DNA from: Nemertoderma westbladi
Lineage: Eukaryota; Animalia; Xenacoelomorpha
Direction of reading: 5' to 3'
DNA length: 64,000 nt
Assembly: GCA_032718475.1 (NCBI GenBank)
Contig: JAUCBJ010008566.1
Span: 10,477 to 74,476, forward strand
The position numbers and the translations under genes were made by a program. Positions 30,601 through 58,358 of the stretch are shown one piece after another (the first letter of the stretch is position 1; every line of letters begins with the position of its first letter). The notes under the pieces are model-generated. The model saw only the letters and a program-made list of their open reading frames with translations. It was not told the DNA's origin and did not search any database.

Positions 30601-32520
30601 TCCAGACATACTAATCATTCAAGAACACTGGCTTAGTGCTGGTGAATCAAAACACCACTTCCACAAGAAACAAATGATGAAAGGCTATACATGTGCAGAT
30701 TACACAGTATCGGACGGTATGTTGGCCATTAAGGCAAGAGTGCGAGGGGAGGGTGGAGTAGCAATATTCCTCAAGTCAGCAATATCACCTTACTCCTCTG
30801 TGTTGAAGACATTATCAGACAGGGTAGTTGGGATAACAATAAAAGGCATCTTTAGCCAGGATATAACTGTTACAGGTATATAAGGAAAACAACCTGAAAG
30901 TCACATTGAAGATGATTCAAACAACCAATCACACCATACGCCAGTACTAACCACTTTCTATCTCCATAGGCTAGAAAATATAAATTACAATGCCAGGTGG
31001 ACCAAAACCTTGTGAAGGAAAGCTTACTTGTTCAAAAATGCATCAATGAAGCAATTAGATTCCTACAAGAAAGATATTGAAGCCTCCATACTATACTACT
31101 GAAGACAACACAATTGATACGGCAGCAGCAGAATCTTTCATAAAGGCTATCTTGACATCTGCCAATAAACATATCCCCTCTACCACACCAAGAAGAAGAA
31201 AGAACTGGAATCCGCAACTATCTAAAAGTAGAAACGCAAGCACCACCAACACCAATAATCGAGAAACGGTAAACCCTGAAAACAAACTCAGGCAGATGCA
31301 GAAAACGAGAGAACTATCAATGCTACAACACAGGATATATCGATAACAAGTCACTACTCTTACTCAAGCATCTTCAACCAGCCCAAACACATTCTGGAAC
31401 AAACTGAAAGAAAGAGATGCACACAACAGCCACCAAATGTCACCAGGCAATGCAAATAACCTATATGACCACTACAAGAATTTCTATAATAACAACAATC
31501 GAAGCCAAATCGCAAAATATAAAACTTCTGAACCGCATCCAAAGTTTCAAGCAGTACCTCATCATCAACAAAATAAAGATAACCATAATGATTTTAACCT
31601 ATTGAGTACAGAAGATATAAACGATGCAATTAAAAAACTGAATAAAGGAAAGGCTGCTGATTCAAACAACATCTCTGTGGAACACCTATGTTATGGAAAC
31701 TCCGAATCTATGTGTAATTTTATTGCTTTTCTCTTTAATGAAATGCGAAGCACGGGATACTTTCCAAACCTTATGTGTTTAGGACTATTGCTCCCACAGT
31801 TGAAGAGCTATGATCGACAAAAAAATCAAATGTCAAGTTACAGAGGTATTTCTATTGTATCGATACTACTGAAATTGTGGGAGCACACAGTGGTGAAGGA
31901 ACTAACATCTATTGACACAAGTTCCCTACAAATGGCATACAAGAAAGGGATGTGCAATGAAACACCATATCTGACAGTTTCAAAACTGATCGAATGGTAT
32001 AACAAGGGCTCATCTCCTTTACACGTAGTATCTTTAGACCTAACATCAGCATTCGACTGCATCAACCATCACTCCTTGGCGTTGGATGCTATATATGTTG
32101 GACAACGTCCTAATGGACCTTTATGACAGCCAATCTTTTGAACAAAAATGATGACCTTTTCAAAATGCCGTGCAATCAATAACCTGTTCAACTGCAACAA
32201 CGATAAAGTTACACATCTGTTTTCAACCATTTTAACACATCATGTCGCAAAAACCTATCATGTTAATCTGATGGATGATTACAACCTTTTATCGTGGCAA
32301 GAAGGTCTCCAGACACTCACTAGCATTGCTACCTGACAATAATGTGTGAAGAAGGTGTTAAAAGGAGCAAAGGTCAGAACTAAAGCTGGAAACATCCCCC
32401 TAACCTTCAAAGAAAAGTTTCACAGCTCTTATTTCCGATCAATCCTAAACAACTGCAATAATGACCATACATCCAAACATACTACAATATTATCGTTCTT
32501 TGGGCTAGAGTAAACCTACA
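27640..32520 (+). mobile_element. Degraded APE-type LINE (RTEX-like motifs): ORF1 region with Ulp1-like protease, coiled coil and RRM-like domain; ORF2 with APE and partial RT
   Basis: IIVSGLP...LNPNMWPG (29790-30000). PDILIIQEHWL and RGEGGVAIF (30600-30775). KLNKGKAAD...EHL, YRGISIVSILLKLWE, SLDLTSAFD (31437-32126). Boundaries approximate. Confidence 0.8.
27810..28330 (+). pseudogene. Ulp1/C48-like cysteine protease remnant
   Basis: LLSPGTCINEALVN, ILLIP, then after a frameshift GHFVL in frame with PKQTNNVDCGIFECLY. Confidence 0.7.
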
Positions 32521-35900: not shown

Positions 35901-38900
35901 AAGGGTTGCATTCTGCGACAGTGTACACACACAAGGGTAACGGTTGCATTCAGCGACAGTGTACACACACAAGGGTAACGGTTGCATTCTGGGACAGTGT
36001 ACACACACAATGGTAACGGTTGCATTCTGGGACAGTGTACAAACTAACAAACACAAGGGTAACGGTTGCATTCTGCGACAGTGTACACACACAAGGGTAA
36101 CGGTTGCATTCAGCGACAGTGTACACACACAAGGGTAACGGTTGCATTCAGCGACAGTGTACACACACAAGGGTAACGGTTGCATCCTACGACAGTGTAC
36201 ACACACAAGGTTAACAGTTGCATTCTGCGACAGTGTACACAGACAAGGGTAACGGTTGCATTCAGTGACAGTGTACACACACAAGGGTAACGGTTGCATT
36301 CTGCGACAGTGTACACACACAAGGGTAACGGTTGCATTCTGCGACAGTGTACACACACAAGGGTAACGGTTGCATTCTGCGACAGTGTACACACACAGGG
36401 TAACCGTTGTATTCTGCGACAGTGTACACACACAAGGGTAACGGTTGCATTCTGCGACAGTGTACACACACAAGGGTAACGGTTGCATTCTGCGACAGTG
36501 TACACACACAAGGGTAACGGTTGCATTCTGCGACAGTGTACACACACAAGGGTAACGGTTGCATTCAGCGACAGTGTACACACACAAGGGTAACAGTTAC
36601 ATTCAGCGACAGTGTACACACACAAGGGTAACGGTTGCATTCAGCGACAGTGTACACACACAAGGGTAACGGTTGCATTCTGGGACAGTGTACACACACA
36701 AGGGTAACGGTTGCATTCTGCGACAGTGTACACACACAAGGGTAACGGTTGCATTCTGCGACAGTGTACACACACAAGGGTAACGGTTGCATTCTGCGAC
36801 AGTGTACACACACAAGGGTAACGGTTGCATTCTGGGACAGTGTACACACACAAGGGTAACGGTTGCATTCTGCGACAGTGTACACACACAAGGGTAACGG
36901 TTGCATTCAGCGACAGTGTACACACACAAGGGTAACGGTTGCATTCTGGGACAGTGTACACACACAAGGGTAACGGTTGCATTCTGCGACAGTGTACACA
37001 CACAAGGGTAACGGTTGCATTCTGCGACAGTGTACACACACAAGGGTAACGGTTGCATTCTGCGACAGTGTACACACACAAGGGTAACGGTTGCATTCTG
37101 GGACAGTGTACACACACAAGGGTAACGGTTGCATTCTGCGACAGTGTACACACACAAGGGTAACGGTTGCATTCTGCGACAGTGTACACACACAAGGGTA
37201 ACGGTTGCATTCTGCGACAGTGTACACACACAAGGGTAACGGTTGCATTCTGCGACAGTGTACACACACAAGGGTAACGGTTGCATTCTGCGACAGTGTA
37301 CACACACAAGGGTAACGGTTGCATTCTGCGACAGTGTACACACACATGGGCAACGGTTGCATTCTGCGACAGTTGTGTACACACACACAAGGGTAACGGT
37401 TGCATTCAGCGACAGTGTACACACACAAGGGTAATGGTTGCATTCTGCGACAGTGTACACACACAAAATGGTAACGGTTGCATTCAGCGACAGTGTACAC
37501 ACACAAGGGTAATGGTTGCATTCTGCGACAGTGTACACGCACAAAATGGTAACGGTTGCATTCTGCGACAGTGTACACACGCAAGGGTAAGGGTTGCATT
37601 CTGCGACAGTGTACACACACAAGGGTAACGGTTGCATTCAGCGACAGTGTACACACACAAGGGTAACGGTTGCATTCTGGGACAGTGTACACACACAATG
37701 GTAACGGTTGCATTCTGGGACAGTGTACAAACTAACAAACACAAGGGTAACGGTTGCATTCTGCGACAGTGTACACACACAAGGGTAACGGTTGCATTCA
37801 GCGACAGTGTACACACACAAGGGTAACGGTTGCATTCAGCGACAGTGTACACACACAAGGGTAACGGTTGCATCCTACGACAGTGTACACACACAAGGTT
37901 AACAGTTGCATTCTGCGACAGTGTACACAGACAAGGGTAACGGTTGCATTCAGTGACAGTGTACACACACAAGGGTAACGGTTGCATTCTGCGACAGTGT
38001 ACACACACAAGGGTAACGGTTGCATTCTGCGACAGTGTACACACACAAGGGTAACGGTTGCATTCTGCGACAGTGTACACACACAAGGGTAACGGTTGCA
38101 TTCAGCGACAGTGTACACACACAAGGGTAACGGTTGCATTCAGCGACAGTGTACACACACAAGGGTAACGGTTGCATTCAGCGACAGTGTACACACACAA
38201 GGGTAACGGTTGCATTCTGGGACAGTGTACACACACTAGAGTAACGGTTGCATTCTGGGACAGTGTACACACACAAGGGTAACGGTTGCATTCTGGGACA
38301 GTGTACACACACAAGGGTAAAGGTTGCATTCTGGGACAGTGTACACACACAAGGGTAACGGTTGCATTCTGCGACAGTGTACACACACAAGGGTAACGGT
38401 TGCATTCTGCGACAGTGTACACACACAAGGGTAACGGTTGCATTCTGCGACAGTGTACACACACAAGGGTAACGGTTGCATTCTGCGACAGTGTACACAC
38501 ACAAGGGTAACGGTTGCATTCTGCGACAGTGTACACACACAAGGGTAACGGTTGCATTCTGCGACAGTGTACACACACAAGGGTAACGGTTGCATTATGC
38601 GACAGTGTACACACACAAGGGTAACGGTTGCATTCTGCGACAGTGTACACACACAAGGGTGACGGTTGCATTCTGCGACAGTGTACACACACAAGGGTAA
38701 CGGTTGCATTCTGCGACAGTGTACACACACAACGGTAACGGTTGCATTCTGGGACAGTGTACACACACAAGGGTAACGGTTGCATTCTGTGACAGTGTAC
38801 ACACACAAGGGTAACGGTTGCATTCTGCGACAGTGTACACACACAGGGTAACCGTTGCATTCTGGGACAGTGTACACACACAAGGGCAACGGTGGCATTC

Positions 38901-40918
38901 TGGGACAGTGTACACACACAAGGGTAACGGTTGCATTCTGCGACAGTGTACACACACAAGGGTAACGGTTGCATTCTGGGACAGTGCACACACACAAGGG
39001 TAACGGTTGCATTCTGCGACAGTGTACACACACAAGGGTAACGGTTGCATTCTGCGACAGTGTACACACACAAGGGTAACGGTTGCATTCTGCGACAGTG
39101 TACACACACAAGAGTACCGGTTGCATTCTGCGACAGTGTACACACACAAGGGTAACGGTTGCATTCTGGGACAGTGTACACACACAAGGGTAACGGTTGC
39201 ATTCTGCGACAGTGTACACACACAAGGGTAACGGTTGCATTCTGCGACAGTGTACACACACAGGGTAACCGTTGTATTCTGCGACAGTGTACACACACAA
39301 GGGTAACGGTTGCATTCTGCGACAGTGTACACACACAAGGGTAACGGTTGCATTCTGCGACAGTGTACACACACAAGGGTAACGGTTGCATTCTGCGACA
39401 GTGTACACACACAAGGGTAACGGTTGCATTCAGCGACAGTGTACACACACAAGGGTAACAGTTACATTCAGCGACAGTGTACACACACAAGGGTAACGGT
39501 TGCATTCAGCGACAGTGTACACACACAAGGGTAACGGTTGCATTCTGGGACAGTGTACACACACAAGGGTAACGGTTGCATTCTGGGACAGTGTACACAC
39601 ACAAGGGTAACGGTTGCATTCTGGGACAGTGTACACACAAAAGGGTAACGGTTGCATTCTGGGACAGTGTACACACACAAGGGTAACGGTTGCATTCTGC
39701 GACAGTGTACACACACAAGGGTAACGGTTGCATTCTGCGACAGTGTACACACACAAGGGTAACGGTTGCATTCTGCGACAGTGTACACACACAAGGGTAA
39801 CGGTTGCATTCTGGGACAGTGTACACACACAAGGGTAACGGTTGCATTCTGGGACAGTGCACACACACAAGGGTAACGGTTGCATTCTGCGACAGTGTAC
39901 ACACACAAGGGTAACGGTTGCATTCTGCGACAGTGTACACACGCTATGGTAACGGTTGCATTCTGGGACAGTGTACACACACAAGGGTAACGGTTGCATT
40001 CTGCGACAGTGTACACACACAGGGTAACCGTTGTATTCTGCGACAGTGTACACACACAAGGGTAACGGTTGCATTCTGCGACAGTGTACACACACAAGGG
40101 TAACGGTTGCATTCTGCGACAGTGTACACACACAAGGGTAACGGTTGCATTCTGCGACAGTGTACACACACAATGGTAACGGTTGCATTCTGCGACAGTG
40201 TACACACACAAGGGTAACGGTTGCATTCTGCGACAGTGTACACACGCAAGGGTAACGGTTGCATTCTGCGACAGTGTACACACACAAGGGTAACGGTTGC
40301 ATTCTGCTACAGTGTACACACACAAGGGTAACGGTTGCATTCTGCGACAGTGTACACACACAAGGGTAACGGTTGCATTCTGCGACAGTGTACACACACA
40401 AGGGTAACGGTTGCATTCTGCGACAGTGTACACACGCAAGGGTAAGGGTTGCATTCTGCGACCGTGTACACACACAAGGGTAGGGGTTGCATTCTGCGAC
40501 AGTGTACACACACAAGGGTAACGGTTGCATTCTGCGACAGTGTACACACACAAGGGTAACGGTTGCATTCTGCGACAGTGTACACACACACAAGGGTAAC
40601 GGTTGCATTCTGCGACAGTGTACACACACATGGGTAACGGTTGCATTCTGCGACAGTTGTGTACACACACACAAGGGTAACGGTTGCATTCAGCGACAGT
40701 GTACACACACAAGGGTAATGGTTGCATTCTGCGACAGTGTACACACACAAAATGGTAATGGTTGCATTCAGCGACAGTGTACACACACAAGGGTAATGGT
40801 TGCATTCTGCGACAGTGTACACGCACAAAATGGTAACGGTTGCATTCTGCGACAGTGTACACACGCAAGGGTAAGGGTTGCATTCTGCGACCGTGTACAC
40901 ACACAAGGGTAAGGGTTT
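32930..40918. repeat. 38-bp tandem satellite, ~210 copies, unit CAGTGTACACACACAAGGGTAACGGTTGCATTCTGCGA
   Basis: Continuous head-to-tail array with recurrent variant monomers. Confidence 0.99.
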
Positions 40919-41238
40919 CATACAACAATGCTGCAAGGCTGTTATTTAAGATCCCTCATAGGAGTAGTAGTACTGTAGGTATTCTTTGTGGCTCATAATC
41001 TACCCTGTTTTATTCATTTACGGTATAGGTCTATTTCTTTTATTTTTTTTTTTTTTTTTTTTTTTTTTACCTCCCTCTTTTTATTGGCTGATAAATGTAA
41101 TAGCAAAAAACAAATATTAGGCACGAGACGAGATCACAAAATACGAATACAAACACAAAACACGCTTTGTTAATCAAGTATTTAGTATTTGATGTATATT
41201 GAAATGTTTTATTGCTTGAAGGGGCGGTTGCTGGTTGC

Positions 41239-44200
41239 CTAGTAATAGGCCATTGAGGGCAGCCCTGCGCCGTCCTCCAGGCCCAGTCCGCTGCGCCAAT
41301 TCACCCGGGATCCACGGAGGCAGTGGGAAGCCCCGCGGATAATGGCGAGTTGGACTCGGGTCCGGATCCAGCCCATTACCACACTGTAGGGTTTCCCCCA
41401 CGCGCGATGCAGCCTCTCCGCAAAGGTCCGGAGCAGTTTGTTGGCCTGTGGAGCCACGATCCCATCGCACGAGGCGACAAACGGGGAGAAGTTGCCACGA
41501 CGATCAGAAACGGCGTCGGCATAGATCCGCTTCTTAGCATCCTCAGTGGACTCAAGAACACTCATTGGGGCGCGGCTTGAGTAAGACCCGGCGTCAAGGT
41601 TCATTACCTTTATATCAATCAACGCCTGGGTCTGACTCTCAAACGCGCCCCGAATCCCGATGTCGCACCGTAGCCCCGCCTTGTCCTCAATCCAACACAG
41701 TCCTTGTTCCAACACCACGTTGCGTGAGCCGAACGCCTGGGCCGCGATGTTCCCCACGAGGTCCCGCAGCTCATTATGCCTCTGTATTACGAGGCCGCCT
41801 TTCTTACAATTTAACCCATGGTTAATGTCGAAGGCGGCCCCGCATCCGTCACAGCGGCTTGGAACCGATGCTAAGGGACGGCCATACCGGATGGCCAGCG
41901 CGTCCCTGAACTCCTGCAGCGAAAGATCCAGCTGGTGTTCCGATATCGGGAGGGAGGAGATCCACCCACCCGAGCGGTAGTCCGCAGCGCGTTGGATAGT
42001 CCTTCGCCGGTCTTTAGGCATCTCCTCCACCGCTTCCTTATACTGGTCTTCCTCGCGGGCCAGCTGTTCTACCCGCCCAGCCTTCCTCGCATATTGGAGG
42101 CATTCTAGATGTCCCGCCAGAGAGAATTCGTCGTCGCCCAGGATTGCCCGTGATAGGGCTCGCGTTCCACTTTGTGATACCCTGTAGGAAATGGCGGCCT
42201 CTGCGACGGGGTTGCGTAGGCCCATGCCGCCAGTGCGAGGGGACAGGGCAAACAAGCTACGTTCCTTCACTGACACATCTCCATTGAGAACGGCTGGGAG
42301 GAACTTCTCCGCGATGGCGCGCTCCAGGTCCTCAAACTCAAGGCTACAGTTAGGTGTGACCCGCTGGAGATATGCCCATTCTCTTTGCAGAGAACAGGCC
42401 ATCGCTGCGAATGCAGCCTGCGGCTGGGTCTCAGCCATCTCAGACAGTTTATCGACAGAAGTGACCCACGCTGCTACCTTCGCCCCTACAAACGTCTTCT
42501 GGTCGTCCGTCCCACCAATAAACCCCCCGAGGAAGCGGTGTCCCGTTACGATGTTGATGGGGTGACCCGCGAAAACCCTGTTGGCCTCATCCAGAAAGGC
42601 TTCGTCAACTACAAGGAAGCATTTCGTAGGCTCTGGGTAGTAGCCGAGTGTGGGGCCGTGATGCTGCAGCAGGAGGAACCAGTCAAGAACATATTCTAGC
42701 TTTCCTGCTGCCACGGAGTCATCGGCATACCAGTTCTGGCGAGTCTTGGTGCTTCTAAGACGACGAATAAGAGGGAGTGCACCCGACGCGTAGAACGGCA
42801 TTGCTAATGGGTCACCCTGCGTGGCCCCTTCCTCACTGAACAGCACCTCCTCTGTTCCGCGGACTATGAGGATGCTGTGACCCCGGTAACTGTTGAACAA
42901 GAACAGTGAACACCGGGGCCACAGTTGGCGGACGTTCCACAGAGCTGCCGTTCTGTTTAGTGCATTGAATGCATTTGATGCATCCACCAGGAGAACACCC
43001 CACCCATCATCGCGCCAATCCTCAAATATTGCCGCCATCGAGTGGATAGCCGCCTCAGCACCTGCAGAGGTGCCAGCCGACAACTGCTCCGCTCCGCACG
43101 TGTTGGTGATGTCGTCCCCGGTCGCCTCTGCCATGGCACGGCCCATGATCCGTCGCAGGCACTGACCAATTCCTATTGGCCGAACACCAGGACATTTATC
43201 CAGGGCGATGAGCCGTCCTGACTGTAATGCGCGAATCGACTCCCACGGAACTACTGAGTTTGCAATGGAGCGGGTAATACTGGCTATTGCATCCCGGAGG
43301 CGCTCGCTATGGGCCCCATAGCTGAGGAGGTAATCGCGCCACCTGGTAGAGTCCGATCCGGTCGGACCAGCGCCTCCATGTAGTTTACGGGCAGCGGATT
43401 CGATGTGTGACGCCGTGATATCCACATCAACCCTGAGTGGAAAGTCTTCCTCGGGTTGTAGTACTGCCTCCGGTGGGGGTGGTGCTGCTGAGGGATTTTT
43501 ATGCTCGGAGAACTCCAACACCCGCTGGTTACTTCCTCCTGATTGGATCTCGTCATTGGGGTCGAGGACCCCACCGGATTCTCGCCCCGTCACCCATCTG
43601 ACTGCGCTTCTAACCTTTCCCTCCAGCATGAGCCGAGTGAAAATACGGATCGTGTGTTCCTTTTCCTCTCCTGGTGGTCGGCACCTCCTGGTACCCCGCT
43701 TGCCAGTTGAAAACTTTAAGGAGCAGCGTTCGGCTTCCACAAGCAGTGTCTCCAGGTGTCCAGAGCGCCATAACTCGACGCGTCTGGTGAGGAGTCGGCG
43801 AATATCGGCTGCTTTAATAACCTTGGGGTCCCTGTGGAGTAGCAATGAGTCAGCGAGGAGGATGCGCTCCGAACGAGCATTAGCAATGTTGTGCGTTAGT
43901 CCAGAGACAAAAGCACCGGCCTCATCCGAGAGGAGGGAGACAACGTCCCTGCCCACAGCACCCCCAGGCAGCCTGTATTTTGAGCCGCATAGCTGGCTCA
44001 CCCGTCTCCACTGGTGGAGAAGTTCGTCTGGCACTGCCCCCTTACCAACTAGAGGAGCTCCATATGCACGGTTCATCAACCCCTCCGGGTCTGAGTCGCG
44101 GTGACCCTCTGCAATGGGGTCCCAGAACGCTGCAAACGTGGAGGTGCCACCCCCGAACTGACCTGCTCCAACCCCGGACTGACCTGCTCTACCCCTGGAC

Positions 44201-45764
44201 TGACCTGCACCAGCCCCAGACTGACCGGCTCCAGCCATCCTGGACTGACCTGCTCCAACCCCGGACTGAACAGTTCCACCCGCGGACTGACCTGCTCCAA
44301 CCCCGGACTGTACTGCTCCAACCCCAGACTGAACAGCTCCAACCCCGGACTGACCTGCTCCAACCTCGGACTGGCCTACTCCAACCCCGGACTGACCTGC
44401 TCCAACCCCGAACTGAACAGCTCCACCCCCGGACTGATCTGCTCCTGCCCCAGACGGACCTGCTCCAACCCTGGGCTGACCGGCTACAGCCACCCCAGAC
44501 TGACCTGCTCCAACCCCGGACTGTCCTGCTCCAGCCCCGGACTGTATTGCTCCAACCCCGGACTGACATGCTTCAACCCCGGACAGGCTGGGCTCAACAC
44601 CGGACCAAACAGCTCCAACCCAGAATTGACCTGCTCTACCCCTGGACTGAACAGCTCCACCCCCGGACTGGCCTGCTCCAACCCCAGACACGCTGGCTTC
44701 CACCCCCAAAACCCCGGACTGATCTGCTCCAATCCTGGATAGGCTGGCATCCACCCCCGACTGACATGCTCCAACCCCGGACTGAATAGCTCCAACCCCG
44801 GACTGACCTGCTCCAACCCCGGACTGAATGGCTCCAACCCTGGACTGAAAGGCACCTGACGCTGCTGTAGGCCCCACACCTGATACAGACTGGGGGAAAC
44901 ACGGCATGGACTGGGGGGGACACATTCCAGATTGCGGGACACACAACACAGACTGGTGGGCATCCGACACAGACTGGGGGGCGCCCAACTGGGAGGAACC
45001 CAACATAGACAGGGAGATTCCTGACACAAACAAGGGTTCATCCGACTCAGACTGGGTGGCACTCGACATGGACTGATGGACATCAGGCACAGACAGAGGG
45101 ACACACAACGTGGATTGCGACACATACTGGGGGGCACCCGACACATACTGGGGCACACCTGACACATACTGGGGCACACCCGACACATACTGGGGGCCAC
45201 CCGACACATACTGGGGGGCACCCGACACATACTGGGGGGCACCCGACACATACTGGGGGGCACCCGACACATAGTGGGGGGCATCTGACACATACTGGGG
45301 GGCACCCAGCTGGTGTGAACCCGATATAGATAGGGGAGCACCCGACACGGGTATGGGGAAGCACGACATGGATTGGGGGGCAACCAATACGGGCTGGGGA
45401 GCACCTGACTCAGACAGGGGGGAGCCGGGCACAGACTGGAAGACACCCGGTTCATATATGGGGACATCCATCACAGACTGGGGAGAGCCCGACGAGGATT
45501 CCATGAGGTAGTCGAGTTCATCCAGAGTTGAGTTTATTTGTGGTGTCTCACTTGGTGCCTGGACCCTGCCCTTTTTCGTTGTTGTAGCCTGACTCGTCCG
45601 CGGCGAGTTGGTTAGCATGTAGTCGAGTACGCCGTGGCCCACAGACCCGCTGTAACCGGGAGGCATCACGATGGGAACGGATTCTGAGGCTGTGTGAAAC
45701 GGGGTCGCTGCCCTATTGGGTAGCTGAAACGGGGTCGCTGTCCTATTGGGTAGCTGAAACGACG
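41239..45764 (-). CDS. CRE1 polyprotein, main part: Gly/Ser/Gln-rich repeats, reverse transcriptase, CCHC knuckle, restriction-like endonuclease
   Basis: ALDKCPGVRPIGIG, DASNAFN, GATQGDPL, WYADD; CDGC...H..NC, RHNELRD, RCDI...IDIKV, E..K..Y, FSPFV. Frame stays open upstream of 45669 up to the TSD. Confidence 0.95.
44150..45300. repeat. Coding 21-bp repeats in CRE1: (GAGQSGV)n at ~44150-44850 and (PQYVSGA)n at ~45120-45300
   Basis: Visible in the DNA (ACTGACCTGCTCCAACCCCGG; ACACATACTGGGGGGCACCCG) and in the translation. Confidence 0.9.
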
Positions 45765-45769
45765 AGCTG

Positions 45770-46966
45770 TGTTCGCGCTTTCAGACCTTTGGCAGTTTAA
45801 CCCACCAAATTAAGATGTCTTCTAGATATTAAATCGGTTTTTAGTCTATGACAAGTATTTGATTCACTACACTAGTCGAAACCAATCCGTGCGCGACCAT
45901 TCACCCGCTGGAGATTCCCGGGAGATTGGGTTCGACGGTTTAATTTTATTGCTATGTAAGCCTAATGTATTATTCGACTGACAGTATTATATAATCTCTG
46001 ACAATATTATTCACCTTCGGGAATATTAACAGTTCCTTTAGGACGTGGCGCTTTATCTATATAAACAGAGTTATAACTTAAACTACTCACAACGATATGG
46101 CTTAATTATAATTCACATATATGGCGCATTCTTTAGGAATTGCTTCTTTAACAGACTCACTCATACACAATGCTGCACAATACTGCATACTAATCTGCCA
46201 ATCTTCACTGATTTTAGTCACATATAAAAGGAACACAGACTGACTCATGTAGGGTCTATCAAATAACATTAGATTCACTTCAAACCACTTTAACATAAGT
46301 CACAATCGTTTATCTGTAACCTTTCTCTCTTACCTTCGGTACATCAAGAACATTGGGTTTCGGGGTTGTTTATCGTTATTCCAAATATAATAATTCATCA
46401 ACCATATTATGAAGAACTGACGGTAAATAGCAGTATAAAACAACAAGTCAGTACCGGTATGTCAGCAATGAGATATAGGCATGTCCGTTAAAGGATATAT
46501 GCCCTTTATAATTAAACCTACTAGTGTACGACTAAAAAGCAGTACAGCACAAAATACTTCCAAGCCGTTCTTTCTTTGGCTCAAGACTGAATGTAAACAC
46601 TGCACATAGGCATTGCGTCATTTCTCGGAAATTTTCTGTACAAGGAGCCACAAAAACGCTCTCATTGGCTGACTGAACCGAGAGACGCCGTAGAACAAAG
46701 GAAATCAACACGTATGAATGTCAGCTGTTAACCGTAGTCATAGTAACTACTGTTCAAGAGTAGCTATCACCCTTTTGCGTCACGAATTGCCATAGAATCA
46801 TAAAAATATGCCTTTCACAGTACACATACGGAGGAAATAGGTCTTAGATCCTCTAAAAACACCGATACAGCAATAATACGGTCTCTTACACTTATTAAAT
46901 CAACTACAGAGTATTTTAATGTAAAAGATAATAAAATAACGGGGCAATTCAGCAAAGGCTTTTACA
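45770..46966 (-). repeat. 3' LTR of copy C
   Basis: Direct repeat of 57162-58358 (offset 11392). Confidence 0.97.
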
Positions 46967-49962
46967 CCGCTCCCAGAAAATGGGATTTTCAGTCTATAAA
47001 ATATAAAAATCACAGTTTCTAAAACATAAAGATACTCTAAACAGTTAGTCTTTCTTACGCAGACGGCGTTTACGCAGTTTTTTGAGGCTAGCAAGAGTCC
47101 TTTTCTCTTTGGGGGGAGCCACTTTACTAGGAGGGCCATAACTCCTGGGTGAAGGGTGCAATATGATTGCATCAGAAGGTGTAGGATTGTGGTCGAGGTA
47201 TCTGCCGTTTCGATATGCTTCTCCTCGAGCTGATTTTCCTCCGCTCGTAGCTGGATACGTTCATCCAAAAACTCTCGCAGAGAATAGGATCGTCCAAGTT
47301 CGATAACTTCTTAGAGATTCTGGATTTCTCAATTGAATTGAGATAAGGCCAATTCGTTTATCGATTGGACTCACTGGTATAACTTACGTTTATCTGAACA
47401 AACGCAGGTTTCCCTTTTGATCTTTATAAAATAGCGTTTAACTCGTTTCGTACAACGCTCTCCTTCACCGTGATGAGGGGTTGTATCGCGTTAAACGTGG
47501 ACGACCATACGGTTGGATAGTGATATTAGGTGTCCGCGTCACAATCTGGCTAGGTAAGATGGGCGGCTAGCTAGAAATCACTGCCGGAGTGTTACCGATT
47601 AATTGTTAGGGTAGCACTAGATCTTTGAACAGTGAATACAGTCCGCGAGGATCCGCGACACCACCAAGATCGCAGGTCTGAGGTCCAACTAAGGAATGAG
47701 GAGGTTTGACCGAGTATTCCGGGACTCTGATCGTAGGTTTACTCCAGGATCGTTCGAGCCGAGTGAGCATAGGTGATACGTCAACAAGTTTCGGTTTACG
47801 TGGATGATTATGTCTTTCCGTTTATTAGTTGGGTCTAGGGCATTTATCGTAATAATACCAAAGACGCACGTCTGATGGGGTAAACGCGGGCGATATTTAT
47901 TTGTTGTTACAATGCTTCTATCAAGAATTCCAAATATACGTTGGAGTCACCGCGTCCATTTGTTTCTTAAGTGTCTTTTCTTTCGAGTCGATTTCGAATA
48001 GAATTTTCGCATTCGAATTTCCGTTTATGGTTCCGACTCCGCTGGGCAGGATATATAGTCGACATAGTCCGTATTATGTAAATCGATAGGATGACCAGTA
48101 GTTAAGAAGCCCATATACGTACCATTACGCCGCGTATATCGAGCAGCGAATTTTCTATAGTCCAACTCACGCGTGAGCTGCTCTTGGGACATTGGCGGTT
48201 CGATATAACGACCATCGTCCTCCGCAGCAGTTGGACTAACGTCGCCGCGTATTAAGCTATCAACAAGCGCTTGTAAAAGTAGAGTATATCGCTCCCCGAT
48301 ACCAAGACCATCTTCTATCAACTCCGTCATATCTGCTATATATGAGTTTATCCATATTATAATGAGTCCACATTTAGGCGAGCGGGCGTCGCTGCCTACT
48401 TCAATCAACCCCCGGACAGTACGAGATCCTCAGCGCCGATGTGTCGTCGCCGCTGTACTTTCGCCAACGACGTAGCCGCACAATGACAACGACAACCGGC
48501 ACAAGTCACTCAACTGTCCGTCCCAAAGGCTTAGATGTACTTCAGGTTTCCTTGGAGAGTTAGGTTACTTTTACGATTGCGACTAGCTACTGTAAACACA
48601 CCTTAGCAGTAACATTCACCTATAAACTCACAAATACCACACACTCGGGTCACTTGTCCGTTAGTCAATGCCTTCCAGAATGTCACTGTATTATTATGTA
48701 TCCTTGGATACTATCAGTGCACTATTTATTCCCTATGCTATTCAATGGGACAAGCTTTCTATTGTTCTTTTAACTCAATTCTAATTCTAGCGTGGTTGTT
48801 GCTATGGTGACATTATGCAAAGCTAGCGGTAGAATTAGGGTGATTCCAATGCATACAGATCTGGGATGTTATTTAATAGTAATTCTTTAATAGTCAATGT
48901 TCTGTTTTATACATGACTTTATGAATTTTATCGGCTATTGACTATGTTTGGGAGACTTTCACACACTCATACGCATGATAAGATAAATCTCCGCTCCCTT
49001 GATCTATTAATTAATGGAATTTTGGGAACTTTATAAATTGCGTAAAAATGGCAATTTATTAAATTCATTAAAAGGCATGAATTTAAATTGATTCCCTGAA
49101 ATTTTATTATTTGATAATTAAATGGACATATTTTGATTCTAGAACATGTCTAGGGACACAAGATCCTTAATTCTAAGAAAATTGTCTCTTTAAGAATATC
49201 GGTAAATGCTACGATATCTTAATTGACTAGAATTGTTGAAGGATCTGAATTTTACAGATTTTGACTTATTTGATTTGTAAATATTAACTAATTAATATTT
49301 GAGATGGGCACCGATTTATTCCAGAACTTGTCTGGGGACGTTAACCACTGATTCTAGAATTTGTCTTTCAAGTATATCGGTGGGTGCCACGATATCTTAA
49401 TCGACTAGAATTACAGATGGTCAAAGGGTTTAACAGATTTATTTTGCGTTATACGCTACTGTTAAAGGGACATCACGCTACTATATGTATTATTTAATAT
49501 ACGGTATGAGAGCAATATCGCACGAAGCAATGTCAGTGTGAAGAGGCAAGTCGTTTCCAAGGTCTACCCAGAGCTTGGTTTAGCCGAGACACGAGGATCT
49601 GAACTTTGCATTCCTAATACTCTGCCTACCAATAATACTTAAATATAGTAGTGGCTTTATTGTACTTTAATAAGTACAGACATTTCATCTTACTGTAGTT
49701 ACGTATTTATAACATAATACGGACAGTAAGGAAAGAGAAAAATAATTATTTCTTGCCGTCGCATTAAATATAATATATACGTAATTAAGTAATAAACGCG
49801 AATATATATTGCACTAATCTACTAAATAATCGCTAAAATAACATTCTACTGAATAAAATTAAAGAAAACGATTATAATAGAATTACATAGTAATACATAC
49901 AGAAATATAAAAATAATAAAATAATATAAAATAATAGAGTCACACACCCACTCCATATGTTG

Positions 49963-52900
49963 TTACGTTATGGAGTCCCTAGATGTTTGAAGGATTAGGG
50001 AGGTGGTCGTGGGAAGAGAATCTTGCCTTCCACAGTTTCCGGAGAGTCCTCCATTCCCTTCCGATAAACACAAACGACCGACTGGGTGATTGAGTCGCTG
50101 CATCCTGAATACAATTCCAGGTTTCCTCTTTGTCCTGGAATAGTGACGATAGAAACATCGCTCAAAGTGTATGACGGCGTCACAAAGCCGATTCCAGGAG
50201 CTATAGTGGTCCGTCGCTCTCTGCAGGAGAGGTGAGAGTCCCTGCGAGACGTCTGATGTTCCAGAGCTCCAATCGCTCTCTCTGATCTTCATGAACGATC
50301 CACTCGCGGAGGGGAGGCCCAGATCCACGGCGTCGTCCCTGGCAACATGTAATACCGACAGATCTATCCCGGGTTCAAATAACTCCGATCCACACGTCCG
50401 GGTTTCAGGTTCGACTTTCTCCGCTCCCTTGGCTGGTATAATCTCAGTCGGAGTAAGATGGGGAGGACATTCATTCTCCTTACTCAGGAAGTCGGGTTCA
50501 CCTAATCGGTCTGTAGTATCTGTCAGTTCTTGAGGAGTTGCTCCTCTGGAAGCGATGTCCGTTGGTTTAAACTTCTTGGGGCAATATCTCCATTGATCTA
50601 CATTGGAGCTAAGATTGTCATTATCTGAGGAGTGTGGTGTTCCCTCAGTTGGGTCGTCTCCCTCACTAGTATCATCTTCCCATTTACTCCGCTGGCAGAC
50701 GCGATCTTGAAGCAGTCTTTCTCTGAGCGTTCTACGGGAAGGTCCAGTAAGGTACCAACCTACTCTAGTTCTTACCGCATAGGGCTGAAGTGGTTGCGGT
50801 TGAGCAGGTCGTTTCTCTAATGTCTCCAGCGCCTCATGCGCGTTTTGGCCGATGAGTATTTGCACTCCAGGATAATCAGTCTGGAATCGAGGTATGTTAA
50901 GATGTTGGATGCTCTCATCCTCGTCCCAATTATAAAGGTCTGCTTGAGTAGTAGCGAAGTTCTTTATAGCCACCATTTTCACTGACCTGATGCTATGTTC
51001 TCCTAGTTCGTCTTGTGGGGTGGACAACGCGCCTACATAATAATCAGCTGTTATTGTAGATTTCCAAACTTGCATAATGCCTGACATGTTGAGCTTAGTT
51101 TGGAACTTGGGTTGTCCAGCAAATATATCTTCGGCTAGCTCTTTATCGATGAATGTTCCTGTGCTGCCGGAGTCCAGGAGGGCGTTCACTACATAACTCC
51201 GTTTAGGTCCGTGCACCCTTACCTGCACCACAGGAAACTCTCGGATTCCTATATTGGAAGTTGGCGCTTTCCAAGATGGTTGTTGATCGGAAGTAGTTAA
51301 GGTAAGGTCGCTGTCTGTGTCTTTCTCATGTACGAGTGCTCGATACACTGCGGTGGTGTTTATTAGGTAACAGGATTCGTTTTGGTCGGAGAACTCGTCC
51401 GTATAGAATCCTTCCATCTCAGATTGATCAGTGTCGTTCACATCACTGAATTGGACATGTAGTTCGGACTCACTTACCTGACTCGGGCTGTTTCGTTCGA
51501 ATTCCGTGTGCAACAAGATATGATGTTTTGCGCCGCACTGTGCACACCTTGCGTCGGAGTTACAGGTTCGCCGTTGGTGTCCTCGTCTGAGGCAATTATA
51601 ACACAACCGCTTATCCCACATGACTTCACGTCTATCCTCGAGTGATTTCCTCAGGAATTTATCACACGCATTTAAACGGTGGGGCCCGTCGCACAGCACA
51701 CATTTTGGTTTGATGTTACTTACCTTATTTTGAGTCACATTGTGTACACTTGCCCTTTCTTCGGGTTTTCTCACCTGAATTCTCTTGGGAGACGTGGGAG
51801 GAGTTTTTCTTACCTGTTCCCTCCTGTCATTTGTTCGAGACTTAAATTTACTTACCTGATCTTTAGGCATTTTGTTCACGTAATAAGATCTATCCGTGTC
51901 TTTCCCGCTATCTTCTCCTTGAGAAGTCTGGCTTTCGCCGTCATCGGTATAACATACTGGTGTTACTTTTCTCCTAGAGACGGGTTTTTCACTTACCTTG
52001 TTTTCCGGTGTCTTCTCTCGGGACTGCTTGAGGAGTTGCAATTTCACTTCTCCATCCAAGAATGACATGAGATCAGCCATGGTAGGGTCTCGTCGTTGTT
52101 GTTCCATCATATAAAGTACTTTCTTATCCCAGCGTGTGCCTACCCCACCTTTCGGTAAAGTAGAAGCCACAGCTCCAATGACCATAGAACTTTGGTATTC
52201 ATGAGACTTACCTAACCAATCTAATTGTCTACAGATCTCTTGAATCTCATCGGAAAACTCTATAATCCCGCTGCTAATAAACTTTCGGGGCGCTACTAAT
52301 TTTGCATATAAATACTTAGCGATATTATTCCTATTACCATACCTGATGTTTAGCGTGTCCCAAACTTGTCTTAATCCGTCTGGATGTCCAATAAACTTTA
52401 ACGCCATTAACTTGGGAGATCCTTCCAAGCACTCGATGAGGTATCTAAGTTTTTCTCCATTAGATAGTACAGAGTTCTGTATGTTATCTTTGTAATATTC
52501 ATTAAAAGGTAACCATTTCATCTCATCTCCATTGAATTTGACTATCTCTCCCACCTTCACCGCTTGCCGGGCTTCGGTTCTAGCCATTTGACGCGTAAAA
52601 CTTTCTTGGGCCATCGTGTTATTTAATATCGAGTTATCGGTATATAAATTTCTCGGATTATGATCAGGTCTATAGGGAATGTCATTATCAACAGGTCTAT
52701 AATTACCCTTAATAGGGTTTACTATAGGAGTTTCTACTTCGCTAGCAGTATATATGCGTGTAGGCTCCACACCTTGCGCATGCAATACTTCAGACCTAAC
52801 AGGTTGACACATTGTTACAGAGGGTGGTGGTATACCCTTTTGGGTGTTTACTAATTTATCGCGTTCAAGCGCGATACTTTGCTGCACTTCTTGCAACTCT

Positions 52901-55017
52901 AGCCTACTTTCCCTTACTGTGCCCTTGAATTGCTGGACAGTCTCCTGCATCTGCCCGAGCAGGATATCCATCCCCCGCCGTCTCTCGTCTACCCAATCAA
53001 CCGCCGAAACGGGATCCGCCAACGTCGTAGCGGGCGGACGAGGGACAACGGGCGACAAATTGTGAATATTTCGCTCGGGGTCCAGGACCTGAACTGTCTC
53101 CTGGGCAGTTCTGCGGGGCACAGGTAGCTTAGTGCTATGCAGAGGGAATTTAGAGGTAGTTTCAGGGAGCACAGGTATGTCTATCACCGAAGGGGTGATT
53201 TCAAGAACAGGCCTAATTATTTCAGGCTCATCTACTATAGTAGGGAGTCTTTCTATTGTAATTATTTGGTCTGTGGGTTCTGTACTCTCTAAGTTGTTGT
53301 TATTTAGTTGCCTTCTAACAGCTGGAGGCAAATCAGGCAATTTCTGCCGGTGGAATGTTCTTTTACGTCTGCTTAGGCGAGATCGATTTCTTCCGCCTTC
53401 AGTGTCGGTGGTATCGCCTTCCTCAGATGAGGTATACCCTTGTCTCTTGGGAGTAGATCGACTCATCATCTGCATATTGCTCGCTGTTAACTGTTTATTG
53501 AAGTTGTCTTGCCTCTCTTGAAGATTTTCCAACGCTAGTTGGGTTGCCTCTTCAGATGCCCTCCGTTCTGCTTCTGCCACTGCCTCTGCTGTTTTTCTTT
53601 CGGCTTCTGCCGCTGCCAGTGCTGCTGCCGCTTTCCTTTCCGCTTCGGCCTCTGCCACTGCCACTGCTGCTGCTGCTTTCCTTTCCGCTTCGGCCTCTGC
53701 CACTGCCACTGCTGCTGCTGCTTTCCTTTCCGCTTCGGCCTCTGCCACCGCTGCCTTTCTTTCCGCTTCTGCCTCTGCCACTGCTGTTGCTGCCTTTCTT
53801 TCCGCTTCTGCCTCTGCCACTGCTGCTGCCACTGCCACTGCCTTTCTATCTTCTATACGTTTTTTCTTTACTTGTTCTTCTTGGTCTCTAGCGATGCGGA
53901 GTAGTTCATCGAATTTAGCTTGGTTCGCAGCTAACCTATCCACATCAATTGCATCCAACACACGCTGGGCTCCTTCACTATTAGGGCTAAGCCCATCTAG
54001 TCTTCTCCTCAACTCTTCATCACCTACGAAACGCTGATAGTCTGACAGATAGATATCAATGGCATCCTTCTTATGCGGTTTCTCTGCCGTCGCTTCACTT
54101 TCCACTTGGGAAAAAGTAGCGTCTGTTGATTCTCCATGGGTTGAGCGCTCCTCCAACTGAGCTTTCCACTGAGCTGCTCCTTGAACCTGGCGACTCACCC
54201 GTTGAAACCAAGTCTTTACGGCAACTTGCAACGACGTGTCTTGCCTTCTTTTAGAAGCCTCCTCAAAGGCGGATAAGATTAGCCTAATTCGTAGAACTCT
54301 TTCTCTAACTTGATAAAGCAGCGATCCCTGCTCTTGAGGTCCTTGAGGTTGTTTAAACAGTTGTCTTTCTACTCGCTCCATAGAGCTGAAGAATCCCTGG
54401 GCGTATCCGGCTGCGGACCTCTTCCATACAGCTGGATCGATGGTTTCCTTGGCTACTCCCATCCGGTGTATGTCTTCCCAGGCAGCTTCTGATAAATCAA
54501 ACGGGAGTCCGGGTCCGGGGAAGTTCCATTGCGACTCGACAATAGACTTCAGTTCTTCACTAGTGTATCCCGCGTAGTTATCTCTAGTTGACAGTTGACT
54601 TCTCGCCCAATCGATCTGGTGTTCTTCCACCGCGATCAATAACCCAGCGAGCACGGCTGCAGGAAGGATGAGAAGGGGATCCGTATAAACCGCATCCGTC
54701 ATCTCTGCTCCGCTCTCGGGTGTCAGCTCTACAGTATCCTCACTACTGGAGCTGCTGGGCCGCTGAGGAATAAGTTCTTGACTAGTGGGTTGTTGCTGTT
54801 CCGCTGCCTTTTGGTCCCGCTTGACCTGAGCTCGGGTGCCTATGATAGACCTACGATGTTGGACCAGCCTAGGTTCTGTTATTACTACTGGAGGGATGAC
54901 CTTCCTCACAGTGGGAGGTGAACTGGATTTACGACCAGACGTTTGTACGTCTCTATCTGAGTCGCAGATAGTTACATCTAATAAACTGTCTGACAGGTTC
55001 CGCCTAGTATCAGACAT
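49963..55017 (-). CDS. BEL/Pao Gag-aspartic protease polyprotein (1684 aa) lacking RT, RNase H and integrase
   Basis: DUF1759-like KFNGDEMKWLPF...LSNGEKLRYL. Triple Cys-His motifs CVLCDGPH..C, CYNCLRRGH..C, CAQCGAKHHILLH. Protease ALLDSGS, ILIG, AVRTRVGWYLTGP. No YxDD or DDE motif found. Confidence 0.93.
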   Translation of the reverse strand: MSDTRRNLSDSLLDVTICDSDRDVQTSGRKSSSPPTVRKVIPPVVITEPRLVQHRRSIIGTRAQVKRDQKAAEQQQPTSQELIPQRPSSSSSEDTVELTPESGAEMTDAVYTDPLLILPAAVLAGLLIAVEEHQIDWARSQLSTRDNYAGYTSEELKSIVESQWNFPGPGLPFDLSEAAWEDIHRMGVAKETIDPAVWKRSAAGYAQGFFSSMERVERQLFKQPQGPQEQGSLLYQVRERVLRIRLILSAFEEASKRRQDTSLQVAVKTWFQRVSRQVQGAAQWKAQLEERSTHGESTDATFSQVESEATAEKPHKKDAIDIYLSDYQRFVGDEELRRRLDGLSPNSEGAQRVLDAIDVDRLAANQAKFDELLRIARDQEEQVKKKRIEDRKAVAVAAAVAEAEAERKAATAVAEAEAERKAAVAEAEAERKAAAAVAVAEAEAERKAAAAVAVAEAEAERKAAAALAAAEAERKTAEAVAEAERRASEEATQLALENLQERQDNFNKQLTASNMQMMSRSTPKRQGYTSSEEGDTTDTEGGRNRSRLSRRKRTFHRQKLPDLPPAVRRQLNNNNLESTEPTDQIITIERLPTIVDEPEIIRPVLEITPSVIDIPVLPETTSKFPLHSTKLPVPRRTAQETVQVLDPERNIHNLSPVVPRPPATTLADPVSAVDWVDERRRGMDILLGQMQETVQQFKGTVRESRLELQEVQQSIALERDKLVNTQKGIPPPSVTMCQPVRSEVLHAQGVEPTRIYTASEVETPIVNPIKGNYRPVDNDIPYRPDHNPRNLYTDNSILNNTMAQESFTRQMARTEARQAVKVGEIVKFNGDEMKWLPFNEYYKDNIQNSVLSNGEKLRYLIECLEGSPKLMALKFIGHPDGLRQVWDTLNIRYGNRNNIAKYLYAKLVAPRKFISSGIIEFSDEIQEICRQLDWLGKSHEYQSSMVIGAVASTLPKGGVGTRWDKKVLYMMEQQRRDPTMADLMSFLDGEVKLQLLKQSREKTPENKVSEKPVSRRKVTPVCYTDDGESQTSQGEDSGKDTDRSYYVNKMPKDQVSKFKSRTNDRREQVRKTPPTSPKRIQVRKPEERASVHNVTQNKVSNIKPKCVLCDGPHRLNACDKFLRKSLEDRREVMWDKRLCYNCLRRGHQRRTCNSDARCAQCGAKHHILLHTEFERNSPSQVSESELHVQFSDVNDTDQSEMEGFYTDEFSDQNESCYLINTTAVYRALVHEKDTDSDLTLTTSDQQPSWKAPTSNIGIREFPVVQVRVHGPKRSYVVNALLDSGSTGTFIDKELAEDIFAGQPKFQTKLNMSGIMQVWKSTITADYYVGALSTPQDELGEHSIRSVKMVAIKNFATTQADLYNWDEDESIQHLNIPRFQTDYPGVQILIGQNAHEALETLEKRPAQPQPLQPYAVRTRVGWYLTGPSRRTLRERLLQDRVCQRSKWEDDTSEGDDPTEGTPHSSDNDNLSSNVDQWRYCPKKFKPTDIASRGATPQELTDTTDRLGEPDFLSKENECPPHLTPTEIIPAKGAEKVEPETRTCGSELFEPGIDLSVLHVARDDAVDLGLPSASGSFMKIRESDWSSGTSDVSQGLSPLLQRATDHYSSWNRLCDAVIHFERCFYRHYSRTKRKPGIVFRMQRLNHPVGRLCLSEGNGGLSGNCGRQDSLPTTTSLILQTSRDSIT

Positions 55018-56329
55018 GACTATGCATACCGCTGAATGTCTACTGCTGTATTACAGTCTAAGCAAGTCTAGTAACTCAGTATGAACTGCTAGCCTAGTAA
55101 TTAATTACCGTTACTGCTACTCAGTGTAGCGTGATATATATATAATATATTAGAATACCGGTATACTTATAGTATATATAACTATTATTACAGACTAGGT
55201 TTATCACAGAATACCGGTATAATTTTAGCACAAATATATATAAATATATAATAGGCCTATCGGAATACCGGTATACAGCTTACAGTTTGTAGGATATATA
55301 ATTCTGAAATAGAATTAATTACAAGTACCGGTATAATTTCAGCCTAGATTTATAGAAATAAAGATAATAGGCCTATCGTAAATACCGGTATATCAATTAT
55401 TTCAAATAATTGAATTTCTGTTACTTTAGGGTTACTTTGTTACTTTATTACTGTTATTTGAGCAGTAATCCAACTGATATTGAGACCTGATGGTTGTATG
55501 GTAGGCCTACGATTTATAAATCGTTAGATTTGATTTATAATATATATATACCCGTTTTAATGGGTTTTGTCAATGTTTGAAATAAATGTTATTATTTCTG
55601 GGGAGTAATCACTACACAAAGCGGTGCGCTTTCAGTGAAGTGTTACGTACAGGACACTAAAACAAATAATACTAATTTACCTAAGTTACTTAATACTATA
55701 AATTACGTACAATTCGGGTGAGATTACAATCTCTAAATAAACACCAAAATTTTACAAAAACACAAATACGAATTTTTAGGGTAATTTTACAAGAAGTCTA
55801 CAAACCAGCCTAACAAAGGGTTAGAAAACTGATTATTACAGCGGACAGGGTACTACGGTATTTGAAATAATAAGTAGTAGTAAATACACTGCGTTGTCTA
55901 GATAGGAAAATACCACCGCCTGACGACCTATAGCCGTATCGCTATAGGTTCTACGTTATGTATCACGGAGTGTTCCTACCTAGAAGTTAATAGAGCTAAT
56001 CGAATGTGCCTATCAACCACTTTACAACACAAATATAATGCCTACAATAATTACTTCGGAAAGTACTATACACTAAACCCTAAATTAGGTACGAGTACTT
56101 GTATAACAAATAATCAGTAGTTAAATATACTTGAACAGCTAAAAGAACCACGGTATCTGCTGGAGTGACCGATGCACAAAATCACCAGTCTTTACCTACG
56201 CCGAGCAGCCCGTGTAGTACCGAGGTTAATTTAACTATAGCGGTATGTATAACAAACACAATTACTGTAGGAACAAACTTGGGGACTTGAATGTTGCGAA
56301 TAATCGCATAAACTCTGAATAATAAATAT

Positions 56330-56900
56330 TACGCTACGCGTACAAACTACTCAAACAAAATACAGACCGAACACTGACAGACTACTATCAAGCCTAAACA
56401 AACTACAGTATATGCAGACTCCGAAATGATTAGGGAGTATGCGCTCTAACCCAGTAGTGCGACTTATTCTTTAGTTGGGGGATTACCTTACAGCGTTCGC
56501 TGCCCCTACTGCCTAATCGTACTTAATCGGACAGATGATCTACACACGCGGCAATCCGTTCAGACCTAATAACAGCCAGACAACTATCCAGCCTACAAAT
56601 TATCTAAATAAAATTATACGCTACCCGTACAGACTTACACAAACAGAGTACAGACTAAACGATGGCAGACTACTCTCAAGCCTAAATAAACTACAGGACA
56701 TGCAGACTCCGAAATGATTAGGGAGTATGCGCTCTAACCCAGTAGTGCGACTTATTCTTTAGCTGGGGGATTACCTTACCGCATTGGCTGCCCCTACTTC
56801 CTAACCGTACTTAATCGGACAAGTGCTCTACACACACTGCAATTCGTTCGGACTTAACAGCAATCAGACAACAGCTCAACCTACAAATTGTCTGTACAAT
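56330..56900. repeat. ~290-bp tandem duplication in the leader of copy C
   Basis: TGCAGACTCCGAAATGATTAGGGAGTATGCGCTCTAACCCAGTAGTGCGACTTATTCTTTAG at ~56412 and ~56701; single copy in B (~21290-21570). Confidence 0.9.
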
Positions 56901-57149
56901 CTGATCAGGTTTACACGCCTTCTGTTCAATACTGGCCTACAAACAAATAAAACTTGACAGAAATAAGTAAAAATCTCAATAAAAAACCAGGGCTGCAGTC
57001 CCTGATTAATTATTAAGGCCTACTGGTATATAATAATCAAAATCGAATAATACTGCTGTAGGTACCGGTCCGGATGATCAGGCAGTCAGGCCTACTGGTT
57101 ACCGGTCGACCGGTACTTTCGACTTTATTGCTTATTGCAATAAAGAAGC

Positions 57150-57161
57150 TATATCCTTTAA
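57150..57161 (-). promoter_or_regulatory. Non-tRNA primer-binding site candidate of copy C (TTAAAGGATATA)
   Basis: Abuts the 5' LTR with no spacer. Exact complement of TATATCCTTTAA on the same strand inside the LTR (57880-57891). Confidence 0.75.
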
Positions 57162-58358
57162 TGTTCGCGCTTTCAGACCTTTGGCAGTTTAACCCACCAA
57201 ATTAAGATGTCTTCTAGATATTAAATCGGTTTTTAGTCTATGACAAGTATTTGATTCACTACACTAGTCGAAACCAATCCGTGCGCGACCATTCACCCGC
57301 TGGAGATTCCCGGGAGATTGGGTTCGACGGTTTAATTTTATTGCTATGTAAGCCTAATGTATTATTCGACTGACAGTATTATATAATCTCTGACAATATT
57401 ATTCACCTTCGGGAATATTAACAGTTCCTTTAGGACGTGGCGCTTTATCTATATAAACAGAGTTATAACTTAAACTACTCACAACGATATGGCTTAATTA
57501 TAATTCACATATATGGCGCATTCTTTAGGAATTGCTTCTTTAACAGACTCACTCATACACAATGCTGCACAATACTGCATACTAATCTGCCAATCTTCAC
57601 TGATTTTAGTCACATATAAAAGGAACACAGACTGACTCATGTAGGGTCTATCAAATAACATTAGATTCACTTCAAACCACTTTAACATAAGTCACAATCG
57701 TTTATCTGTAACCTTTCTCTCTTACCTTCGGTACATCAAGAACATTGGGTTTCGGGGTTGTTTATCGTTATTCCAAATATAATAATTCATCAACCATATT
57801 ATGAAGAACTGACGGTAAATAGCAGTATAAAACAACAAGTCAGTACCGGTATGTCAGCAATGAGATATAGGCATGTCCGTTAAAGGATATATGCCCTTTA
57901 TAATTAAACCTACTAGTGTACGACTAAAAAGCAGTACAGCACAAAATACTTCCAAGCCGTTCTTTCTTTGGCTCAAGACTGAATGTAAACACTGCACATA
58001 GGCATTGCGTCATTTCTCGGAAATTTTCTGTACAAGGAGCCACAAAAACGCTCTCATTGGCTGACTGAACCGAGAGACGCCGTAGAACAAAGGAAATCAA
58101 CACGTATGAATGTCAGCTGTTAACCGTAGTCATAGTAACTACTGTTCAAGAGTAGCTATCACCCTTTTGCGTCACGAATTGCCATAGAATCATAAAAATA
58201 TGCCTTTCACAGTACACATACGGAGGAAATAGGTCTTAGATCCTCTAAAAACACCGATACAGCAATAATACGGTCTCTTACACTTATTAAATCAACTACA
58301 GAGTATTTTAATGTAAAAGATAATAAAATAACGGGGCAATTCAGCAAAGGCTTTTACA
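57162..58358 (-). repeat. 5' LTR of copy C
   Basis: TGTAAAAG...CGCGAACA on the minus strand; CCAAT box at 58056-58060. Confidence 0.97.

Follow-up and report, generated by a model that had tools for sequence, protein, structure and literature searches.

How does an LTR element start minus-strand DNA synthesis when no tRNA-complementary site follows its 5′ LTR? Members of the Belpaoviridae are described as replicating by tRNA priming, from an 18-nt site with complementarity to tRNA-Arg or tRNA-Gly of the host, and their replication is described as poorly understood (PMC8742986). The question is raised by a 64,000-nt stretch of the Nemertoderma westbladi genome (GCA_032718475.1, contig JAUCBJ010008566.1, positions 10,477–74,476, forward strand), referred to below as the window. 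Comparing the window with itself revealed four copies of one LTR family, which we call A, B, C and D. Copy C is a complete element on the minus strand. Its 5′ LTR (57162–58358) measures 1,197 bp, has TG...CA ends and is 100% identical to the 3′ LTR (45770–46966), and the element is flanked on both sides by a 5-bp target duplication, CAGCT. Together, the identical LTRs and the target duplication fix the LTR end and indicate that C inserted recently. Copy B (20247–27606, plus strand) has a truncated 5′ LTR (20247–21014; 97.9% identical to 26839–27606), a 3′ LTR at 26328–27606, and lacks most of gag. A (minus strand, 3′ LTR at 18014–19191) and D (plus strand, 3′ LTR at 398–1584) are present as 3′ ends only. 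In the self-comparison, the LTR types of C, A/B and D were 74–78% identical over their alignable 3′ parts. A and B are joined head to head at 20247 and share no common target duplication; the junction is probably a deletion between two insertions.

Several features surround these copies. The leader of C has two copies of a 288-bp unit (56314–56893) of which B has one. Ahead of the 3′ LTR, the purine tract (46967–46990, minus strand, and its homologues) is short, and a small hairpin (TCCCA/TGGGA) precedes it in all four copies. C's 3′ LTR is abutted by a 1,513-aa ORF (41239–45780, minus strand) without a Pfam match, in which reverse transcriptase (RT) and restriction-like endonuclease motifs are recognisable and which we take to be a CRE/HERO-type non-LTR element. 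This ORF, with a poly(A) at 41034–41068, ends beside an array of about 209 copies of a 38-bp unit (32930–40921) that has a higher-order period of roughly 540–580 bp. Directly after B, broken ORFs with weak Ulp1-protease and RT matches (27596–32126, plus strand) likely represent a decayed non-LTR element. Turning to public data, we found that 12,687 contigs of one run mapped to 1.45 kb of C, and that the depth of single contigs on C ranged from about 10 to 2,780 across runs. This contig depth, which is not equal to copy number, points to a high-copy family.

An initial reading of the DNA by sequence alone had placed the family in BEL/Pao, and for Gag and protease this assignment holds. The single ORF of C (49963–55050, minus strand; 1,695 aa from stop to stop) encodes a BEL/Pao Gag, a protease and a short C-terminal remnant of RNase H. 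We detected DUF1759 (E 2.4e-12), read the three knuckles of a triple Cys-His box in the translation, and recognised the protease; all three are BEL/Pao hallmarks listed in the accessible part of PMC554778, which gives the box as CX2CX3-4HX4C, CX2CX2-4HX4-5C and CX2-4CX3HX4H. The element shares with the Belpaoviridae its 1.2-kb TG...CA LTRs, the 5-bp target duplication, the triple Cys-His box of Gag, the protease motif ALLDSGS and an RNase H tail whose placement fits a gypsy-type order. Protease and tail match full-length BEL/Pao polyproteins in order, with RT and integrase deleted: in the comparison with full-length relatives, the Gag–protease match breaks off and resumes about 550 profile positions further on, in the RNase H tail. 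The same comparison found no remnants of the element's RT, RNase H core or integrase in the window. Judged by its proteins, the element is BEL/Pao-derived, and the family is a non-autonomous BEL/Pao family that has lost its RT. No close or autonomous relative was found: one search returned seven matches at 23–37% identity, and the best 150 of 13,011 relatives were 25–38% identical, with no RT-encoding partner among them. The named relatives among the best listed are spread over several animal phyla and give the family no placement. When a relative's polyprotein was compared with metagenomes, 70 pattern matches yielded 0 confirmed loci, and a conserved LTR motif had 0 matches in metagenome and viral contigs.

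Unlike the Belpaoviridae, neither C nor B carries the 18-nt tRNA-Arg- or tRNA-Gly-complementary primer-binding site after its 5′ LTR (PMC8742986). A TGG-type site is likewise missing, as the sequence-only reading had noted, the first TGG lying 173 nt (C) and 178 nt (B) into the leader. We also found no tRNA gene in the element and no credible Rfam match in C (one match, E 0.16, far below the cut-off). What does follow the LTR in C is a 12-nt candidate primer-binding site without TGG (57161–57150, minus strand), which is the exact reverse complement of a site in C's own LTR (57891–57880; LTR position 468–479), the candidate self-primer, present a second time in the 3′ LTR at 46499–46488. The corresponding claim for B was equally accurate: its candidate primer-binding site, the 11 nt at 21015–21025 (plus strand), is the exact reverse complement of 26742–26752 (LTR position 415–425). 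Both matches begin on the first base past the LTR end. The partner in B had to be read from the 3′ LTR, and the caveat attached to it was correct: the 5′ LTR is cut at 20247 and lacks the site. Copy A carries the B-type site at 18781–18771.

The LTR sites are homologous, as proposed, with a CCAAT 169–180 nt upstream in four of four LTR types, and the loop, estimated at about 720–850 nt, measured 718–854 nt from site end to LTR end. Between B and C, the primer sites differ at 4 of 11 positions (1, 5, 6 and 10), and all four changes are matched at the LTR site. Only 7 of 11 primer-site positions are thus identical, next to an adjoining LTR end that is identical at 20 of 20, and cross-pairing B with C left exact matches of only 4–6 nt. 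The complement turned up in 7 of 20,000 shuffled LTRs for C and in 32 of 20,000 for B, and the genomic flanks behind the 3′ LTRs, used as a control, matched over 4–6 nt in four of four cases. The predicted duplex between site and primer site has an energy of −11.6 kcal/mol in C and of −8.0 to −11.6 kcal/mol across versions, which is weak for a 718–854-nt loop and counts against the explanation favoured below. Upstream of the site, the duplex can be extended imperfectly, by 9 pairs in C and 6 in B; we did not rely on this extension, as it overlaps a 9-bp leader hairpin.

A third version of the site (821–832) is present in the LTR of D, a copy whose 5′ junction the window does not include. This version is near-palindromic: over 11 nt, the site and its predicted primer site differ only at the central base. 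That the D site predicts a further primer-site variant was set down before public contigs were compared with the B junction. Relative to the B 11-mer, pairing with the D site requires changes at positions 5, 8 and 10. The public data were assembled contigs of four runs (X1, X3, X4 and X5), of which X1 and X3 are DNA runs from different studies and X4 is, by our guess, RNA. The contigs show exactly three substitutions in 21015–21025, all of them predicted from D, namely 21019 T>C (14 contigs in X1, 8 in X3), 21022 A>T (9 and 3) and 21024 T>A (4 and 1). The change at position 10 is common to the C type, and those at positions 5 and 8 are specific to D.

The majority lines of loose contig ends further placed the D complement directly after the LTR end in three of the four runs. 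It was matched at 12 of 12 positions in X1 (2 contigs) and in X4 (3 contigs, agreement 0.7), and at 11 of 12 in X3 (4 contigs, agreement 0.68); a second X3 line, behind another LTR end, matched at 10 of 12, and no D-type junction was seen in X5. The 2-nt insertion at D's LTR end was found in X1, X3 and X4, and the X4 contig that carries it is one of the three behind the X4 loose end. The D pairing is linked via LTR type, as no single contig reaches from the site to the primer site. Contig depth for the change at position 5 is about ten times that for the changes at positions 8 and 10, and further primer-site variants may therefore exist. One X1 line (16 contigs, agreement 0.62) resembles an intermediate of C and D and may be a blend or a fourth variant.

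We also predicted how the RNA folds around the primer site. In the predicted fold of C, the last U5 bases pair with a segment about 120 nt upstream, giving a U5 inverted-repeat stem beside the primer site (57165–57288, minus strand; 57288–57276 with 57179–57165, inner hairpin 57201–57180). Across five LTR ends, pairing in its two 6-bp helices is kept in 59 of 60 cells, and D shows one double change; the stem is not in B's minimum-energy fold. A second predicted stem, between U5 and leader, encloses the primer site (57027–57385, minus strand; 57385–57359 with 57053–57027), and in B as in C all positions of its inner 12-bp helix are paired (12 of 12), with a probability of 0.73 for B and 0.91 for C. 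Two further hairpins are predicted in the leader (57062–57145, minus strand; 57145–57123 and 57116–57062), with identical stems and different loops in B and C. The primer site itself is mostly unpaired in these folds (0.47–0.99 per base in C, 0.28–0.95 in B). Covariation in the stems did not exceed that of shuffles (57–201 of 500) in an alignment whose leader columns include misaligned flank letters in three of five rows, and the predicted U5 and U5–leader stems flanking the primer site are suggestive only. Because the LTR site lies outside the predicted U5–leader stem, the primer duplex would be a pseudoknot ('pretzel'). When longer stretches of C RNA were folded, site and primer site did not pair: of the 12 primer-site bases, 0 had the site as their best partner, which may be because the program forms no pseudoknots. 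One contig in each of two DNA runs skips exactly 57027–57161, representing a copy without the primer site; these 135 bases begin at the LTR end and take in the leader up to the distal side of the predicted U5–leader stem.

The flush geometry, the four matched changes and a third variant that was predicted and then found lend good support to the self-priming that the sequence-only reading had put forward. In all three versions, the duplex ends where the 3′ end of a primer must sit for the LTR terminus to be copied, and a different primer site is not visible, which makes self-primed reverse transcription in some form probable as far as sequence can tell. Minus-strand DNA synthesis would be primed by an 11–12-nt piece near the 5′ end of the element's own RNA, with the LTR site pairing with the bases flush with the LTR end. 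RNase H would cleave the RNA where this duplex ends on its 3′ side, and the primer would be extended into U5, as in Tf1; RT and RNase H would be supplied in trans. Of these steps, we infer that the primer originates in the 5′ copy, that the RNA is cleaved and that the enzyme acts in trans. Self-priming by the Tf1 route is the simplest form, and the sequence evidence makes it reasonably likely that the family is primed in this way, from near the RNA 5′ end and not by a tRNA. In LTR replication, each cycle of plus-strand synthesis would make the primer site anew with the primer as its template. Such re-copying would explain how a short AT-rich duplex came to hold three to four matched changes between nearly fixed flanks.

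A self-primer could also derive from the copy of the site in the RNA's 3′ LTR, a route undescribed for any LTR element in the literature searched and one that we consider unlikely. Transcription might start just after the site, in which case the RNA would contain the site solely in its 3′ U3 and would form a circle by pairing from there with the primer site; alternatively, the RNA 3′ end might be made at the site and fold back. Transcription signals bear on both versions. In C, a TATA-like hexamer begins only 11 nt before the site and none of the four LTR types has a TATA at about −30, which is in tension with a start at the site itself; ordinary TATA spacing would place the start 5–10 nt after it. 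The site is preceded in four of four LTR types by ATTA(C/T)A, which we take to resemble weak poly(A)-signal variants. If the hexamer is functional, or ATTA(C/T)A a poly(A) signal, the primer would have to come from the 3′ copy. A hypervariable block that starts at the 3′ edge of the site points the same way: the LTRs cease to align there, the spacer to the next conserved block measures 52, 57, 87 or 179 nt, B's 3′ LTR has an 82-nt insertion relative to A at this edge, and contig depth falls about 6–8-fold just 3′ of the site in three DNA runs. The block and the drop in depth fit a template for RT that ends close to this edge, under either self-priming model. Set against a 3′ origin is that the hexamer is a true TATAAA in C only (one of four LTR types) and is not kept as such in A, B and D. 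A canonical AATAAA lies 180–193 nt before the LTR end in C, D and B's 5′ LTR (three of five LTR ends), offering a better R/U5 boundary and favouring an ordinary long R. Moreover, cutting the 3′ copy would, we infer, remove the R needed for strand transfer on the same molecule. B's truncation point was dropped as a candidate RNA 5′ end, since, in the LTR type to which B belongs, this point falls about 90 nt beyond the site.

The pairing might be real and selected yet serve RNA cyclisation, packaging or the control of polyadenylation, with priming by another route. The other long-range stems predicted in the same RNA and the imperfect upstream extension of the C duplex by 9 pairs agree with such a role; it would leave unexplained why, in each of three versions, exact complementarity stops precisely at the base that follows the LTR, and an alternative primer site is not apparent, with no TGG within 170 nt and neither a tRNA gene nor an Rfam match in the element. 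We regard this reading as improbable. That priming is by half of a host tRNA or by another small RNA, with the match to the LTR being secondary, is highly improbable. Half-tRNA priming exists in copia lineages, according to the accessible part of PMC6317226, but any two of the three versions here differ at 3–4 of 11 positions and every version fits the LTR type it belongs to, so that a separate host RNA would be required to keep pace with each of the three LTR types. That the complementarity arose by chance in AT-rich DNA has a negligible likelihood. Matches of 11 nt do occur at about 1 in 1,000 internal positions (at least 11 nt at 7 of 10,175 in C and 7 of 5,293 in B, the primer sites themselves counted), yet chance would have to produce two matches at a fixed position to homologous sites, four matched changes and a third variant predicted before it was found; we rejected it on the D-predicted substitutions in the public contigs.

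A primer assembled by splicing was discarded as well. The site is contiguous, and among about 8,000–10,000 donor–acceptor pairs per LTR, C had 0 junction-crossing matches of at least 10 nt, and A and B had one apiece, at the same junction. Splice-like signals are present in the element: a donor-like AG/GT(A/T)AG at 57728/57727 (minus strand) and its homologues lie 164–300 nt after the site in four of four LTR types, and acceptor-like tracts are found in the leader and just before the gag ATG. Splicing from this donor would yield an mRNA without the primer site.

Tf1-like self-priming, the reading we favour, can be compared with known systems. In Tf1, the first 11 bases pair and RNase H cuts between bases 11 and 12 (PMC7175516, accessible text); the cutting of the first RNA bases by RNase H is also described in the available portions of PMC5341516 and PMC4600332, and a three-duplex 'pretzel' structure is needed (bioRxiv 2022.12.06.519325, as far as available). 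By analogy, our element may work in the same manner. Like Tf1/Tf2, Tj1, Tosmo and the Tf1/sushi group, it has a primer site directly after the 5′ LTR that is complementary to about 11 nt of its own LTR; as in Tf1/sushi, it lacks a tRNA site and has flanking duplexes predicted between primer-adjacent sequence and U5. These predicted stems resemble the three-duplex structure set out in the accessible part of the Tf1 preprint (bioRxiv 2022.12.06.519325), but about 110 nt of leader with two hairpins separate the U5–leader stem from the primer site, beside which it lies in Tf1. The element further differs from Tf1 in its loop of 718–854 nt, in copies that lack RT and in a start site that is a prediction. 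Tf1/sushi elements are Ty3/gypsy chromoviruses, whereas Gag and protease here are BEL/Pao, and the element is not a member of that group.

Self-priming has been shown for Tf1 and predicted for Tf1/sushi, Tcn1 and copia TAR in the accessible parts of PMC6317226, PMC3601003, PMC5443660 and PMC5445492. TAR (Ty1/copia) and Tcn1 (Ty3/gypsy) are plant lineages for which, in the available text of PMC6317226, the prediction was drawn from complementarity between primer site and LTR, without biochemistry, as is ours; they belong to other superfamilies and hosts. As they indicate that self-priming arose more than once, a further case is less surprising. Self-priming was found only for gypsy and copia lineages in the literature searched, which held no report for BEL/Pao; most subscription journals and Repbase Reports lay outside it, and a prior description is possible. 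The accessible text of PMC3118150 (0 occurrences of PBS, primer, tRNA or self), PMC554778, PMC13524379, PMC8220671 and PMC3286476 contained no useful statement on primers. We think it likely that a BEL/Pao lineage has independently evolved tRNA-free self-priming, with at least three co-varying pairs of primer and primer site and a loop of 700–850 nt.

With a high-copy family and several primer variants at hand, the question is testable by genome-wide covariation and RNA end mapping alone. If self-priming is true of this family, annotation pipelines that require a tRNA site would miss such elements, and a BEL/Pao RNase H would be able to cut an RNA–RNA duplex. BEL/Pao would then be the third superfamily to reach self-priming, after gypsy, where it has been shown, and copia, where it has been predicted.
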